Shown here: positions 45,001 through 57,000 of the stretch, piece after piece
Layout of the letters: each line of letters begins with the position of its first letter
Position numbering within the stretch: position 1 is the stretch's first letter
Source of the DNA: Spirochaetia bacterium
GTDB taxonomy: Bacteria > Spirochaetota > Spirochaetia > DSM-27196 > Salinispiraceae
Assembly: GCA_038204425.1 (NCBI GenBank)
Contig: JBBRCZ010000015.1
Location: 1 to 60,176, forward strand
DNA: 60,176 nt
Reading direction: 5' to 3'
Program-made: the position numbers

Positions 45001-48000
45001 TTGCCACCAGCCAAAAGCGGACTGCTGTCCATCCAACATAAGACAGCTTCAAAATCACGCGTGAAAGTAGGTTCTTGATCTATCACCACGATGGAACTGC
45101 CTCGGCCAGCATCGACATCATCAGCCAAGTGAACAATGGCAGAAAAGGGTGCTTCCACTTTTGTCTGGTCTTTGAGATTGCTTTCCAAGCGCGAAATGGT
45201 ACTGGTAAGACCGGACGGCAATATTTTTACCTTGTCACCGACCTTGTAGGTGCCTGAAATTACTTTACCTGCAAGTCCTCGGTAGTCATGCAATGTGTCA
45301 GTTTGTGGCCGTATCACGTATTGAATCTGAAATCGTGGCTGTGCAAACGGAGCGATGTCAATTTCTACTGTTTCGAGCTTTTCGAGCAAACTCGGGCCGG
45401 TAAACCAAGGCATGGCGCTTGAACGAGAAACTACGTTGTCGCCGGCAAGTGCCGACAGCGGTAAGAAACTGAGATCGTCAAAACCAAGTTGGGCAGCAAA
45501 GCTTTGGTAGTCACCCTTAATTTTTTCAAAAACGTTTTGATCGTAGTTGAGCAGATCCATTTTGTTGATGCAGACTACTAGGTGCGGAATGCGCAAGAGG
45601 CTGCACAAAATGCTGTGGCGCCTAGTCTGTTCAGTAAGGCCATTGCGCGCGTCTATTAAAATAATAGCAAGTTCACAATTGGAGGCGCCAGTAACCATAT
45701 TGCGCGTATACTGAATATGCCCTGGCGTGTCCACAATAATGAACTTTCGCTTGGGCGTTGTAAAATATTTGTAGGCAACATCGATAGTTATACCCTGCTC
45801 GCGTTCGGCACGGAGACCGTCAGTTAACAAGGCCAAGTCTATGTCTGTATCAGCTGACTTGGTCTTACTCTGCTTACTCAACGTTTGCAGAATATCGGTA
45901 GAGACTGAGTCGCTATCGTAAAGAAGGCGCCCAATTAGAGTGCTTTTTCCGTCGTCTACGTTACCACAGGTAAAGAACTTTAGCAGTTCCATTAGAAATA
46001 GCCTCCTTTTTTCCTGTCTTCCATGGCGGCTTCGCTGGTTCTATCGTCCAAGCGCGTGGCGCCCCGTTCGCTGATGCGGGCTACCCGAATATCTTCAATG
46101 ATGTCGTCAATAGTGAGGGCAGTGCTGGCAACTGCAGCTGTGCAGGTCATGTCACCAACCGTACGATAGCGCACAGCATGGTGTTGGATAACATCACTTG
46201 CATCCAAATTAAGAAACTCAGACTTAGCGACCATTTGTCCGTTGTCGGTAATGACTACTTCTCGTTGGTGGGTAAAATAGAGCGAAGGTAAGTCTATTGC
46301 TTCGTTTTTGACATAATTCCAGACGTCCAACTCGGTCCAGTTAGATATGGGAAATATGCGAACATTTTCTCCCTTAGAAATTCGACCGTTGTAAATATTC
46401 CACAACTCAGGTCGCTGTTTTTTGGGGTCCCACTGACCAAACTCGTCGCGTACCGAAAAAATTCGCTCTTTGGCACGCGCTTTTTCCTCATCGCGACGTG
46501 CGCCGCCTATACAGCAATCAAACTCAAACTCTTCGATAGCATCCAAAAGTGTGTAGGTTTGAAGTGCATTTCTACTTGGAAACTTGCCAATTGCGTCTTG
46601 CAAGCCGCGGACCTTGATGGTGTCCTGAACTTTTCTAACTATGAGTTTCTCCCCTATCTTTGCTGCTATCTCATCGCGATAGGCGAGCACTTCGGGAAAA
46701 TTATGTCCGGTATCTATGTGAACCAAAGGGAAAGGAAACTTGCCGGGCCTAAATGCCTTGAGTGCAAGATGCACTAAAGTAATTGAGTCTTTGCCACCCG
46801 AAAAAAGCAAGGCTGGTCGTTCAAATTGACCGGCCGCCTCACGAAAGATATGAATGGCCTCAGCCTCGAGAGTGTCCAGATAATCTCTGTGTTGACTCAT
46901 TGTATGATAATTTCTCCGGGGCGAATCTTAACAAACTAAAGCATAAGGGTCAACATAGATCTTTCCGAACTTACAACGAGCCATAGTTCTACTTGAGCGA
47001 ATCAAAAGCCGCGATAACGTCAAAAAGCTCGGCGTCAATGCTACTTTTTCGTTGACGGTGGTAGCTCAGGTTAAGCTCACTGAGCAGTTGGTCAATGTTT
47101 TGGTCAGCCCGCTGCATGGCGGCCAAACGACTGGCATTCTCACTAGCCAACGATTCTGCACAAGCACGGAAAAGTGAAACGAAAAGATATTCATTAATTA
47201 GAGCGCGCAGTGTCTCGGTGCCTGAGCCTATAACCTGGGCATATCTGCCGTTTGGCCAGGACAGCTGGCCAAGACTTACCAGCCACTCTCGGTCAAGTGG
47301 CAAAAGTCGTTGCGCGAATGGCTCATAGACCGCAGCGGACTGCGGACGATTGTAGAAGAGATACAGTTCGGGTGCTTGGTTTAATTGGCGCTGGCTTTGG
47401 GTTTCTACCAGAATTTCAGCAACCAATGGGACAATACCTTCAACCGATGAAGGCAATTCAAAAAGTCCGAGCACGGATAATCCAGCATCAAGCAATCGGC
47501 CATGCACGCGCTCTCCGACGGCCCAAACTCTGCACGTTTTTGACAAACTCGTTAGTTTGTCGTGTGCAAAATCAGCAACGATGTCATTGAACTGACCGAC
47601 CAGGCCCTGATCAGAACCAAAAACAATAGCATCAATTGACTTTGAGTTCTGTTTTTTTTCTGCAAAGGGAATCGTCTGAGCCTGCTCTCGAAGACAGACA
47701 CCAAGCCCCAGTTCTATCGATCGATAATAGTCAGCCAAAGCACGTACTGAATTTTCGTATTGTCCGATGCTGGATGCTGCTACGGCTTTCATGGTGCGGA
47801 CTACAGCCCAAAGATCTTGGCCGCCTTGGATTTTGCGACGAAGGCTTTCTGCGTTGTCGTTCATGCCTTGCTCGTTTACGCTTGCCCGTAGCGGTAAGTG
47901 GCCGCCAGCCCGGTTTGTCCCGGCATTGTTGCTGCCGGTATGATCTGAACTTTACCACCCATCTTTGCGACTATTTCGGCCAGGTTTTCTAGACTTTCAC

Positions 48001-54000: not shown

Positions 54001-57000
54001 CAGCCATAGTAAGTGCTGCATGACCAACCCGGAAGCGACTGCCAGGGGGCTCATTCATCTGGGCAAATACCATCACCATATTCGGCAGCACGCCAGCTTC
54101 CTTCATCTCACGGTACAACTCTTCACCCTCGCGGCAACGTTCACCAATGCCGCAAAAAATGCTAACGCCGTCGTGGTGGCCTATCATGTTGTGAATTATT
54201 TCAGTCAACAATACCGTCTTGCCTACACCCGCACCGCCAAACAAACCTGCCTTGCCGCCACGTTCCAACGGCATCAGAACATCGATAACTTTGATCCCCG
54301 TCTCAAAAATCTGTGACGAAGTGGAATGTCTGGTTAACGAGGGTGGCGATTGATGGACCGATTTCCATTGAATATCGTTAGGTTGAGCCTGTCTATCGAT
54401 AGCATTCCCAAAAACGTCAAACATTCGTGAGAGAATCCCTTTGCCGACAGGAGCCATTAGAGTACCACCGGTATCTTCTACTGGTGCGCCGCGGGCCAAC
54501 CCCTGTGTTGGGGTCAGTGCTATCCCCCGCACATGATGAGCATCGAGTTGAGTTAGAACCTCAATTGCGATTGTGCCATTTTGGGCGTGTAATAAAGAAT
54601 AGATAGCCGGCAAGTGCTCAGCAAAGCAAATGTCTACAACGCTGCCGCGAATAGAAACTACTGCACCCTGGTTTGGAATATTGTTCTGACTTATTTTGGA
54701 TTGCAAACGATTGGGTACGAAAAATCTTTTTTCTCTTGTATTTTGTAACATCTGGTTTAAAACATAAACAAAGAGAAAGAGCTAGTCGGTGCGGTAGCGC
54801 ACACCATGTATCACTGCGTAATCGGCCCAAGCTGCACCTTTGCTGTAACAAGCATAAAACGAGCAGTAGCGAGATAGATTTAAGCTAATAACTATGTGGA
54901 AGAGTACGATAAGAAAACCGCTCGAACTTGGCAACTTCGAGCGGATTCTTTCACAAATATTCTATTTGCCAACACTCAGTGTGCCGCTGGAATCTATGCT
55001 ATGCCATTCTGGTCCAACGCCAATTTCATCCGCGTTAGCAACAAAATAAAGCCGATTGTCTACTTTATACAGAGCTGTCGGTTGAGGGCCATCATTTACA
55101 AAATCATGCTCAAGAGTTACTGTATCGCTGGTGTTGAGCGAGTATAAGTCGGACTCGGAAGAGTCGCTTAAACCGACTCCTGAGGCTGGACCTTGGGCAA
55201 AAACATACGCTCCGGCGACAGAACCTACGTTAATTTCCTCAACAAGCTCTATCACATTTGCGGTAGTAAAGCCGGCGCTTGGTATCGATCGGCCCAACGT
55301 GCTTGGTAAGTTTTTCGTTTTACTGCCGGATTCTAAATTTCTTCTCGATTCTAGACCAACTGCGTTACCAATCCGTATAAGCGACCGACAGCAGGGCTAC
55401 AAGCTTTAGAGAATCAGCTAAAATCCAAAAATCACAAGCAAATGCAACATAGTGTTGAAAATATGTCATTTTTTTTTCATCAATACAAAATCAGATTTAC
55501 CAGTTTTCTGTATTAGATTATAGAGGATAAAATCCCGGTACTGGATGTTGTTGCCAATGACGAAAGCGGACGCATGGTCGATGTTGAAATTCAGACGGTA
55601 TTGTTGCGATTGTTGCTCAAACTAGGCAAAGATCCGACAGCCTAGTTTGGTCGACTAAGTTCCCCGTGATGCCAAGCGTAATATGCGTATAGAATTCGAA
55701 TGTTTAGCGGTCAAGTTCAGACTTTTGGCGAATACAGTGTGGCTTTAACCAAAGAACACTGTCGCTAAGTTGTAAATGGTCCTGGCAGAGGAATTGCAGC
55801 AGACAAGAGCATATAGTTTGCTTGCAATCTTTGGAAAAAAGGGCCAAAATAGAACTATTATCATCAATCATACGTTTTGAGACTACTCGCGGGCCAAACT
55901 CTCCAGTGGATTGCCGGCAACTTGGGTTGACGCTAGGTACACTGAAACTAAACGATTTTTAAAAGGTGGGTATCATGAGCACTATTGTTGTCTATAAATC
56001 AATCTCTGGCTTTACTAAAAAGTATGCCAAGTGGATAGCCGATGATTTAAAATCAGATTGTATTGATCTTAAAAATTTACGTGCAAACATGATAGACCAA
56101 CATACAACTATAGTATTTGGCGCCAGCCTTCATGCAGTCGGCATCAGTGGATACAAAAAATTAAAAAAAATTTTGATAGCTTCTAAATACCGAGAGTTGG
56201 TGCTTTTTGCAGTTGGAGCATCACCAAAAAAAGATGGTATTGAGAAGGAAATAGCCGATTCAAATCTCAAAACTTATCAAGATAAACTAATTAATTTATT
56301 CTATTTTAGAGGAGGATTTGATTACTCCAAGCTTAATATTTCTAATAAAATTTTGATGGCATTACTTAAAATTAAAATAAGAATTAAAGGGGAAGGAGAG
56401 CGAACCAGTGACGAAAAAGGAATGCTGGCATCATACGAAAAACCATTCGATGCAACAAAATATGAAAACGTAAAAGAACTTGTTGCCTATGTATTGAACC
56501 TAAAATAGGCACAAAGGCAACGATATGCATAACAGTGCTGAAATCTGGAATACATGCGGTTTCATAGCTATCTTTGTAGTTTAATTCCGGCTCAAAATTA
56601 CTTGGACTTGTCAAAATTTGACAGTCCGCGTAGAAGTTATATATAGTAACTTACAAGATTGTACGACTACTATCTTGCCCTAATTCGTGCTTTTTTTAAA
56701 AAATCTGCTGCGCAGCCCTGCTTGGGGTACAAAAATGGAGGCAAGCATGCAAGTAAATTTTTTGCCTCATCTCTACGAGTTTGGAATTAATCCACTGCTT
56801 GTCTCTGGACTAGGAAACGATACTTTAGGAAAAAAAATAGCCAGTGCACTATCCAGATTCTCTCTCCCAAGCTCCGGGATTACTTTTTCTGATAGATACC
56901 CAACCGGCACCGTAACCGTTTCAATTGCTCATATCGATGTTCCCAAGGATCTTCCCCATTCAATACCTCTGCTCTATCATGGTTCACTTACTCTTCGAAA

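Follow-up and report, generated by a model that had tools for sequence, protein, structure and literature searches.

A predicted Balon-type aeRF1-fold protein is encoded between atpA and atpG of an N-ATPase operon in a Spirochaetia bacterium

Results

An N-ATPase operon with an additional gene between atpA and atpG

We analysed a stretch of 60,176 nucleotides from a Spirochaetia bacterium (contig JBBRCZ010000015.1 of assembly GCA_038204425.1), hereafter the window. It contains ten ORFs, all on the minus strand, that Pfam and NCBIfam assign in order to atpD, atpC, atpQ, atpR, atpB, atpE, atpF, atpA, a baeRF gene and atpG (Table 1). The operon is complete. All seven 'alternate F1F0' models of NCBIfam (beta, epsilon, a, c, b, alpha and gamma) score above their curated cut-offs, and these models (TIGR033xx/TIGR03166) are the best or near-best matches for the seven subunits when set against the standard F-type models. 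Both atpQ and atpR are present, and the gene order is that of an N-ATPase operon, atpD-C-Q-R-B-E-F-A-G, save for the extra gene between atpA and atpG. Gene order, AtpQ/AtpR, the b-delta fusion and the Na+-type c subunit are shared with the atpDCQRBEFAG operon as described by Dibrova et al. (2010; PMC2881411), from which the window operon differs by the extra gene. Specifically, AtpE (92 aa) contains ESTAIY and an additional helix-1 glutamate (ALAEGRA), which would supply the full set of Na+ ligands, corresponding to the ESTxxY motif and extra helix-1 glutamate given there for N-ATPase c subunits. Judged by its sequence, the operon is a bona fide N-ATPase operon. A V-type A subunit above cut-off on contig C1 marks a second rotary ATPase, and no further F-type alpha subunit above cut-off was found in the genome (95.6% complete); an N-ATPase as defined by Dibrova et al. 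is always a second rotary ATPase in its genome, here alongside a V-type enzyme. The same source reports a single-gene insertion in the Acaryochloris operon; this is a cation:proton antiporter gene rather than a Balon-type gene, and lies between atpQ and atpR.

Upstream of the operon, in divergent orientation, is a sucrose-phosphate synthase/phosphatase gene. This neighbour and the Na+-type c subunit fit a salt-stress context.

Table 1. Genes and sites of the N-ATPase operon in the window
Feature	Position	Strand	Evidence
atpD, N-ATPase F1 beta subunit, 494 aa, first gene of the operon	53267..54751	-	TIGR03305 alt_F1F0_F1_bet, 871 bits (cut-off 752); PF00006
atpC, epsilon subunit, 151 aa	52888..53343	-	TIGR03166, 134.5 bits (cut-off 100.1)
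atpQ (ATPase_gene1), N-ATPase marker, 103 aa	52584..52895	-	TIGR02230, 119.8 bits (cut-off 46.7); PF09527
atpR, N-ATPase marker, 104 aa	52277..52591	-	PF12966 AtpR, 90 bits; TIGR03165, 94.1 bits (cut-off 55.5)
atpB, Fo a subunit, 230 aa	51595..52287	-	TIGR03306, 376.1 bits (cut-off 302.1)
atpE, c subunit, 92 aa; ESTAIY in helix 2, Glu in helix 1 (ALAEGRA)	51305..51583	-	TIGR03322, 163.7 bits (cut-off 130.85)
atpF, b subunit fused to delta-like (OSCP) part, 254 aa	50536..51300	-	TIGR03321, 278.4 bits (cut-off 224.7); PF00430 + PF00213
atpA, F1 alpha subunit, 512 aa	48998..50536	-	TIGR03324, 891.8 bits (cut-off 750.5)
P0001, Balon-type (baeRF family 3) gene, 373 aa, predicted three-domain aeRF1 fold	47876..48997	-	PF18845; NF052287 (sub-cut-off); structural model; Foldseek
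P0001 codons T31-P42 (THRSHPDNQQDP), most conserved stretch of the family, containing His-Pro	48872..48907	-	Alignments with 8rd8_B
P0001 C-terminal-domain site R326-S333, where 17 residues (beta-hairpin in relatives) are missing	47999..48022	-	Alignment; models
atpG, F1 gamma subunit, 291 aa, last gene of the operon	46989..47864	-	TIGR03323, 371.9 bits (cut-off 282.35)

The extra gene, P0001, had been annotated as a 373-aa baeRF family 3 gene between atpA and atpG, and its ORF, its coordinates, its spacers and both joints were confirmed. The TAG stop codon of atpA (48998-49000) directly abuts the ATG of P0001 (spacer 0 nt), upstream of which lies the Shine-Dalgarno sequence AAGGAG, and an 11-nt spacer separates the TAA stop codon of P0001 from the ATG of atpG. 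These spacers leave no room outside coding sequence for an independent P0001 promoter, and the minus strand from 54751 to 46989 contains no terminator-like site. A contig from a run of another study (X3, record 10) spans 47763-49584, including both P0001 joints, with a single mismatched letter, indicating that the atpA-P0001-atpG arrangement is not a misassembly.

P0001 resembles Balon in sequence and predicted fold

P0001 matches PF18845 (baeRF_family3) with an E-value of 4.9e-42 and 144.6 bits (gathering cut-off 31.5), covering profile positions 1-168 of 168. In a phmmer search of the PDB, the only matches are 8rd8_B, 8rdv and 8rdw (E 1.5e-11), while a profile built from 43 sequences matches residues 3-142 and 182-369 of 8rd8_B (E 4e-31); Pelota ranks second (E 0.42). 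The identification of 8rd8 chain B as Balon, made in the initial annotation, is borne out by the PDB titles and by the depositions of the Balon paper (8RD8, 8RDV and 8RDW; Balon is AOC03_06830; Helena-Bueno et al. 2024, PMC10901736). The AlphaFold model of P0001 (pLDDT 87.4) has three domains, and its best five Foldseek matches are Balon chains of Psychrobacter urativorans (AOC03_06830; 8RD8, 8RDV, 8RDW) and M. smegmatis (mycobacterial Msmeg1130/Rv2629; 8V9J-L). Lower in the Foldseek ranking, from rank 6 onward, come aRF1, eRF1 and Pelota (Dom34), which share fold and domain order with P0001; in contrast to these proteins, P0001 is bacterial, has neither a GGQ nor an NIKS string in a motif scan, and lacks the zinc ribbon.

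Identity between P0001 and Balon is about 20%. All 32 columns invariant across 43 aligned sequences are kept in P0001, including P36, N38, Q40, D41 and P42, which argues that the gene is not decaying. The conserved THR-x-HP-x-N-x-QDP stretch aligns with that of Balon, and H35-P36 of P0001 aligns with the His-Pro of 8rd8_B within the most conserved stretch of the family. On this alignment, H35-P36 probably represents the 'HP motif' of the Balon paper, whose main text gives no residue numbers for it. The model has low confidence (pLDDT under 50) in loop 178-197, the position of the lasso loop and bL27 trap in Balon.

Helena-Bueno et al. counted as Balon homologues those proteins recovered by iterated HMMER searches from Balon that have at least 300 aa and a three-domain aeRF1-like architecture. 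P0001, with its 373 aa, three-domain model and phmmer and Foldseek matches, would count as a Balon homologue in this broad sense and falls outside the narrow sense given by the NF052287 equivalog (Balon, AOC03_06830 family). NF052287 is the nearest NCBIfam model; it scores 137.9 bits, below the equivalog cut-off of 330, over profile positions 3-297 of 361, and both the low score and the early end count against reading P0001 as a Balon factor. Relatives that bear the hairpin described below are also under this cut-off (177-180 bits), though their matches run nearly or wholly end to end. Taken with the structural model, these data indicate that P0001 is a Balon-type protein of predicted aeRF1 fold. 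The 95.6% complete genome has no other Balon-like gene.

The window gene lacks a C-domain beta-hairpin and an HPF partner

P0001 had been described as a full-length homologue of Balon. The profile match does extend over the whole chain, but alignment reveals the deletion of a 17-residue beta-hairpin of the C-domain, which is kept by 8rd8_B and 78 of 81 complete relatives. The deletion is confined to the window gene and its closest relatives, those of homologue loci L003 and L004 (3/81 complete sequences). Consistent with the alignment, strands E326-329 and E336-337 in the model of the L011 protein have no counterpart in that of P0001, and the NF052287 match ends at position 297 of 361 in all three shortened proteins, compared with 2-361 for L011 and 10-361 for L021. 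The deleted insert probably corresponds to the beta-hairpin of Balon that contacts EF-Tu(GDP), and if so the mechanism of P0001 may differ.

In the 80 closest homologue loci, a short PF02482 HPF gene adjoins the Balon-like gene in 51, mostly 13-140 nt downstream. A pairing of Balon/baeRF with HPF (RaiA) has been described (Helena-Bueno et al. 2024, PMC10901736; Burroughs and Aravind 2019, PMC6514570), and the clade of P0001 is mostly HPF-paired, unlike P0001 itself. No HPF gene adjoins the Balon-like gene in the window, L003 or L004; all three genomes have a canonical HPF elsewhere, which in the window's genome is the only HPF and lies on another contig. In the tree, these three genes form a fully supported clade on a long branch (0.39).

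A Balon+HPF cassette recurs at the atpA/atpG joint

Counts for the 80 loci agree with those reported before: six have a full atpA-X-atpG arrangement, one has atpG only and one has the operon on the other strand. One embedded locus, previously listed under Chloroflexota, belongs to Candidatus Intricatilinea gracilis, a betaproteobacterium in the NCBI taxonomy. The insert had been viewed as a single gene, which holds for the window but overlooks the HPF gene in five of the six embedded operons. A two-gene Balon+HPF insert is found at the atpA/atpG joint in L011, L016, L018, L053, L064, L088 and L129; compared with these, the window shares joint and protein family and has a one-gene, hairpin-less insert packed with 0- and 11-nt spacers. 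Partial inserts comprise a broken Balon gene with HPF (L126), HPF only (L125 and L202) and Balon only (window and L003), and in other N-ATPase operons the insert occupies the atpA/atpG joint every time. The second-closest relative, L004, has no ATPase genes beside its Balon-like gene. Free cassettes in L006, L019, L031 and L036 carry scars of the atpA 3' end or the atpG 5' end beside unrelated genes. The insert was ancestrally a pair of Balon and HPF genes, from which the window's form, having neither HPF nor the beta-hairpin, is derived.

Within the same clade, free cassettes adjoin further genes of ion or membrane function, for DUF2254 (five loci), a P-type cation ATPase, an Na+/H+ exchanger and a BON protein.

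Only a minority of N-ATPase operons are linked to Balon: the insert occurs in 2/27 operons of unbiased genome samples (the non-seed operons over cut-off in three samples) and in 3/69 readable metagenome operons (L129, L126 and L125). The tie recurs at this joint in other lineages, including G1066 and G349, the latter from the window's phylum, Spirochaetota. On the pump tree the insert is patchy, requiring at least five changes, and a single clade of insert-bearing operons is rejected (AU p 2e-5). On the tree of Balon-like proteins, all nine embedded copies fall within one 36-row set (98% support), and the other 47 rows contain no embedded copy. The cassette tree and the AtpA+AtpG tree share the three well-supported splits of their nine common taxa, with a patristic r of 0.79. 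Divergence of the cassette broadly tracks that of the operon, and its decay is piecewise.

Discussion

We lean towards the explanation that a Balon-family hibernation factor is made from the N-ATPase transcript and derives from a Balon+HPF cassette within atpA/atpG. As a member of that family, P0001 would occupy the ribosomal A site through its conserved N-terminal His-Pro region and hold ribosomes inactive; Balon binds this site in both vacant and translating 70S ribosomes (Helena-Bueno et al. 2024, PMC10901736). A cassette of Balon and short HPF would have lodged between atpA and atpG, then travelled, diverged and been partly lost along with the laterally mobile operon, and the window lineage would have lost the HPF gene and the beta-hairpin. 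Because P0001 is packed 0 nt after atpA and 11 nt before atpG, it presumably shares a transcript with the F1 genes, and its translation is probably coupled to theirs; the Balon-type factor and the Na+ pump are therefore probably made together, so that a ribosome-parking factor would be produced whenever the ATP-driven pump is. Coupling Na+ export to translation shutdown may be beneficial. The initial annotation had read the locus as a hard-wired stress module of this kind, a reading that is supported in part: the Balon type, the N-ATPase operon, the lack of a second Balon-like gene, the tight spacing and the recurrence of the tie stand, while the minority state, the piecewise loss and the pump-less cassettes weaken it. 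Its statement that rotary ATPases had not been described as a Balon context agrees with the main text of PMC10901736 and those of its supplements that were searched, which name no rotary ATPase operon; no link between Balon and N-ATPase was found in the literature searched.

The rarity and non-monophyly of the insert, the broken inserts, the pump-less cassettes and the context of L004 count against this explanation, and most of them also suit a historical accident, in which the protein has the same function and pump and translation shutdown are not adaptively coupled. A mobile Balon+HPF cassette would once have inserted into an operon that is non-essential and itself moves laterally, where it rides along and is being lost, any stress-time expression being good enough. 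The low frequencies in genomes and metagenomes, the patchy pump tree, the decay intermediates (L126, L125, L202, window and L003), the survival of scarred free cassettes and the wide lateral spread of baeRF genes (Burroughs and Aravind 2019, PMC6514570) all favour it. However, the insert has persisted for so long that it diverged together with the operon in two phyla, P0001 is intact as the sole Balon-like gene of its genome with every family-invariant residue, and the neighbours of free cassettes hint at a non-random theme. We consider an accident possible but rather doubtful.

Two further readings concern what P0001 does. The clade of the window, L003 and L004 could have left EF-Tu(GDP)/RaiA Balon-style hibernation for another ribosomal job, as the deletion in exactly these three sequences, the missing HPF neighbours, the long branch and the truncated NF052287 match would suggest; its members may be EF-Tu-independent A-site blockers, rescue factors or RelA antagonists, and the Balon paper leaves other A-site roles open (PMC10901736). 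We regard such a change as unlikely, given the family-invariant residues kept in the N-terminal and middle domains and the canonical HPF of each genome; moreover, Balon homologues bind ribosomes without EF-Tu in pelleting assays (Helena-Bueno et al. 2024, PMC10901736), so loss of the EF-Tu contact need not alter the core activity. A role off the ribosome, with P0001 co-opted for N-ATPase assembly or F1 inhibition, would account for its position between the alpha and gamma genes at translational-coupling spacing, for the loss of partner HPF and EF-Tu hairpin, and for its faster evolution than that of its relatives. We think this highly improbable, since the ribosome-facing N-terminal motif is invariant, the sister L004 is equally derived yet has no ATPase neighbours, at least 25 of the 27 sampled N-ATPase operons function without such a gene, and cassettes outlive deleted pumps.

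An N-ATPase operon with a Balon-type gene between atpA and atpG

The window contains an operon for an N-type ATPase, and its ORFs exceed the curated cut-offs of all seven NCBIfam 'alternate F1F0 ATPase' models. The atpF product is a b subunit fused to an OSCP-like part. The c subunit contains ALAEGRA followed by MIESTAIY, that is, the ESTxxY motif together with the helix-1 Glu, the combination given in the text of Dibrova et al. 2010 (PMC2881411) as the Na+ signature of N-ATPases. The genome (2.84 Mb, 24 contigs, 95.6% complete) encodes a V-type A subunit above cut-off and, at this completeness, no other F-type alpha, which makes the N-ATPase the 'second' rotary enzyme, in line with the text of that paper.

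The operon encloses the gene for P0001, the Balon-type protein of the window. The atpA stop codon directly abuts the P0001 ATG, which is preceded by AAGGAG, and 11 nt separate the P0001 TAA from the atpG ATG. A sequence scan found no terminator-like site on the minus strand within the operon, and this is the sole point used from that scan, in which promoter-like sites were not enriched (17 vs 17.8 in shuffles) and terminator-like sites were fewer (4 vs 14.2). A run contig from a second study covers 47763-49584, both joints included, with one letter different, so the joints are real and misassembly is ruled out; the stretch is present in three DNA data sets from two studies, and no RNA data set is listed for it. 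The open frame and the retention of every family-invariant residue rule out a pseudogene. At its 95.6% completeness the genome holds no second Balon-like gene, its one canonical HPF gene lies on a different contig, and P0001 has nine distant matches on plasmids (21-29% identity).

Downstream of atpG, on the same strand and after an 88-nt gap with promoter-like hexamers, lie cysD and cysN, which probably form a separate unit. Upstream, a divergent gene for a sucrose-phosphate synthase/phosphohydrolase fusion precedes the beginning of an alpha-amylase-family gene. With sucrose as a compatible solute, this gene and the Na+ pump operon may constitute a salt-stress neighbourhood.

Features of the window and of homologue loci
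Feature	Coordinates	Strand	Description
N-ATPase operon	54751-46989	-	ten ORFs: atpD, atpC, atpQ (ATPase_gene1), atpR, atpB, atpE, atpF, atpA, baeRF gene, atpG (Pfam + NCBIfam)
Balon-type gene P0001	47876-48997	-	373 aa; PF18845 baeRF_family3, E 4.9e-42
cysD + cysN	44724-46900	-	sulfate adenylyltransferase
Sucrose gene	57252-59414	+	720-aa fusion of sucrose-phosphate synthase-like glycosyltransferase and sucrose-6F-phosphate phosphohydrolase domains
Alpha-amylase-family gene, start	59720-60073	+	
L012, Rhodocyclaceae MAG	L012:7356-12425		phosphoketolase, Balon-like gene, HPF, intact lone atpG
L019, Polaromonas glacialis	L019:10001-11134		Balon-like gene
L053, Piscinibacter	L053:5345-8421		~3 kb between atpF and atpA

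P0001 is a Balon-type protein

A phmmer search of PDB sequences with P0001 matches only 8rd8_B, 8rdv and 8rdw (E 1.5e-11), and a profile of 43 sequences matches the Balon chain across its length at E 4e-31, with Pelota next at E 0.42. The initial annotation had identified 8rd8 chain B as Balon; the three entries are indeed among the depositions listed in the text of the Balon paper (PMC10901736), which also identifies AOC03_06830 as Balon. The AlphaFold model of P0001 (pLDDT 87.4, pTM 0.82) has as its top five Foldseek matches three Psychrobacter urativorans Balon chains and two chains of Msmeg1130, the Mycobacterium smegmatis counterpart, and aRF1, eRF1 and Pelota rank below the Balon chains.

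A motif scan finds neither GGQ nor NIKS in P0001. The protein retains THRSHPDNQQDP, its His-Pro aligns with the His-Pro of Balon, and P36, N38, Q40, D41 and P42 are invariant in the 43 aligned sequences. Judged from this alignment, THRSHPDNQQDP would correspond to the 'HP motif' of the Balon paper, which the text of PMC10901736 presents free of residue numbers. In the narrow sense of the NCBIfam Balon equivalog NF052287, however, P0001 falls short of Balon, scoring 137.9 bits against a cut-off of 330 in a match that ends at position 297 of 361. Its earlier description as a full-length homologue calls for a qualification, because the C domain carries a 17-residue deletion.

This deletion is common to P0001 and its nearest relatives, encoded at L003 (Spirochaetaceae MAG, 62% identity) and L004 (Syntrophaceae MAG, 58%), and the three proteins group together with full support on a long branch (0.39). 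Among 83 compared sequences, two of them incomplete rows, the C-domain stretch comprises 20 residues in these three vs 34-38 in the other 78 complete sequences. In the model of the L011 protein, the stretch forms strands E326-329 and E336-337; in the P0001 model, strand 317-323 leads straight into helices. In the profile alignment, solved Balon also has residues across the stretch. In addition, the NF052287 match covers 2-361 in the L011 protein and 10-361 in the L021 protein, and stops at 297 in all three shortened proteins. In the text of Burroughs and Aravind 2019 (PMC6514570), the Pelota-like domain of baeRF proteins contains a two-strand insert, and the text of PMC10901736 describes a unique C-domain beta-hairpin, or beta-loop, of Balon as the recognition site for EF-Tu(GDP). 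We infer that the stretch missing from P0001 is this two-strand insert and this hairpin, as those texts describe them.

The insert recurs in N-ATPase operons and is often a two-gene cassette

At L011 and L016, the Balon-like gene and atpG are separated by an ORF of 103-145 aa that encodes an HPF of the RaiA family (PF02482). At 51 of the 80 nearest genome loci, tblastn shows a short HPF gene adjoining the Balon-like gene, mostly 13-140 nt downstream; five of the other 29 have too little downstream DNA to judge. P0001, L003 and L004 have no adjacent short HPF gene detectable by tblastn. Pairing of Balon with RaiA already appears in the texts of PMC10901736 and PMC6514570. The Balon-like gene of L019 has an in-frame stop near its N-terminus, which may reflect a pseudogene or a sequencing error.

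Six of the 80 loci carry the insert at the atpA|atpG joint of a full N-ATPase operon (L003, L011, L016, L018, L053 and L064), L012 has the insert with atpG alone, and at L017 a canonical operon is convergent to the cassette. These figures reproduce the earlier counts of six embedded copies, one balon-atpG pair and one operon on the other strand. The operon-linked loci come from Spirochaetota, Gammaproteobacteria and Betaproteobacteria; a locus formerly assigned to Chloroflexota is that of Candidatus Intricatilinea gracilis, a betaproteobacterium. The ~3 kb between atpF and atpA at L053 matches no operon protein and is a second insertion site.

To obtain a denominator, the N-type gamma model TIGR03323 was searched in three samples of 401 genomes each. 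In the sample of the window's phylum, four genomes exceed the cut-off, with the insert in G000 and G349 and not in G317 and G119; both canonical operons look damaged, with atpA matched in two frames in G317 (L089) and atpG split in G119 (L091). In the Pseudomonadota sample, seven genomes exceed it, and only the seed, G401, has the insert. Of the 20 above it in the sample of the order of G402, 18 are canonical, the seed contains the cassette and G1066 an HPF gene alone. With the three seeds excluded and G564 counted once, 2 of 27 operons have the insert or a remnant of it. Of the 80 metagenome loci with the closest AtpG, 49 are canonical, eight are without upstream DNA and three have too little to judge; one has the full cassette (L129), one a broken Balon-like gene with HPF (L126) and one HPF only (L125). 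The other 17, such as L138, L151 and L156, have a 150-306-nt atpA-atpG gap matching neither gene; this gap may reflect a longer C-terminus of atpA, like that of L011 (550 aa), or may hold a small ORF.

Trees and scars suggest an old residence of the insert in N-ATPase operons

In a tree of 83 Balon-like proteins, all nine embedded and three adjacent copies fall within one 36-row set (SH-aLRT 98%), with none of the embedded copies among the other 47 rows. Mapped on a 64-operon AtpA+AtpG tree, the insert requires five changes or more, and a single clade of the ten insert-bearing operons is rejected (lnL difference 193.6, p-AU 2e-5). For nine shared taxa, the two trees have three of six splits in common, those with the best joint support, and their patristic distances correlate (r 0.79, over pairs that are not independent). 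Because the trees share splits and partial forms exist, these sequence comparisons favour, without proving, a long-resident insert that was lost or moved out repeatedly, rather than one captured afresh many times.

In four free cassettes, scars lie exactly at the expected places. At L006, a remnant of the atpA C-terminus lies upstream (80% over 44 aa, E 2e-14) and one of the atpG N-terminus downstream (E 2e-6). Remnants of atpG flank the cassettes of L019 (E 2e-6) and L031 (E 2e-7), and one of atpA flanks that of L036 (E 2e-9). Therefore, these cassettes either moved out of an N-ATPase operon or stayed in place while the surrounding pump genes were deleted. Present neighbours of free cassettes include a P-type cation ATPase, a Na+/H+ exchanger and a BON-domain protein, and a DUF2254 predicted membrane protein adjoins the cassette in 5 of 11 Pfam-scanned loci (L005, L006, L020, L031 and L036, of the beta/gamma clade). 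At L012, the 10 kb upstream hold no other atp gene and an N-run occupies 7047-7069; the layout of this locus stems either from rearrangement or from a scaffolding error.

N-type gamma subunits also occur on 16 plasmid records, and the operon of Acaryochloris marina plasmid pREB4 (L196) has a cation:proton antiporter between atpQ and atpR, which fits lateral mobility of the operon. The Acaryochloris insertion in the text of Dibrova et al. 2010 (PMC2881411) is this antiporter, at another joint, and not an earlier drawing of the Balon insert.

Interpretation and relation to published work

In the best-supported account, P0001 would be a Balon-family A-site hibernation factor and a trimmed descendant of a Balon-HPF cassette resident at the atpA|atpG joint. 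Gene spacing predicts its expression with the Na+ pump, because there is no room for signals of its own. Gene order alone suggests that the pairing would be useful, with translation halted and ATP spent on ion balance, and the Na+-type c subunit and the divergent upstream sucrose gene weakly second this. The main rival grants P0001 the same function and sees the operon linkage as an accident, tolerated and now in the course of being lost, which fits the rarity and patchiness of the insert, its decay forms and the pump-less cassettes. Two smaller rivals concern the protein itself: the hairpin-less clade might have a changed ribosomal role, or P0001 might have been co-opted as an accessory of the N-ATPase. 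Against this co-option speaks the sister L004, which shares the derived features but has no ATPase genes beside it.

A bolder extension of the best-supported account, which we consider rather unlikely, would make the N-ATPase operon the ancestral home of an entire clade of Balon-HPF cassettes, and would join pump and hibernation factors in a dormancy module. Cells that cease growing under ion or energy stress would park their ribosomes and put the ATP saved into membrane and Na+ balance. Cassettes would later have escaped, with their atpA/atpG scars, to other ion-homeostasis loci, and P0001 would be a slimmed-down version able to park ribosomes with neither EF-Tu nor RaiA.

The Balon family, the Balon-HPF pair and the N-ATPase are already known. 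A literature search returned no paper joining 'N-ATPase' and 'hibernation', and 'Balon' is absent among the matches listed for N-ATPase, ATP synthase operon or atpG. The main texts of PMC10901736, PMC6514570, PMC4154653 and preprint 10.1101/2025.11.04.686544 mention no ATP synthase context, and the supplements of the first two contain no ATP synthase terms; a scanned PDF and the Balon paper's figshare datasets lay outside this search and may list the context. Within the texts covered, a hibernation factor in a rotary ATPase operon is unmentioned. New here are the one-gene variant lacking hairpin and HPF, the denominators, the rejection of a single clade and the atpA/atpG scars.

A hibernation gene in the N-ATPase operon points to a pump made in cells that are shutting translation down, so that a role of the pump in non-growing, ion-stressed cells becomes testable. 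For Balon, the rotary ATPase adds a genetic context unnamed in the papers searched. P0001, a natural deletion variant without the presumed EF-Tu hairpin and the RaiA partner, offers a ready-made test of what both parts contribute, and the scars beside free cassettes are a rare directional record of a hibernation module moving between loci.
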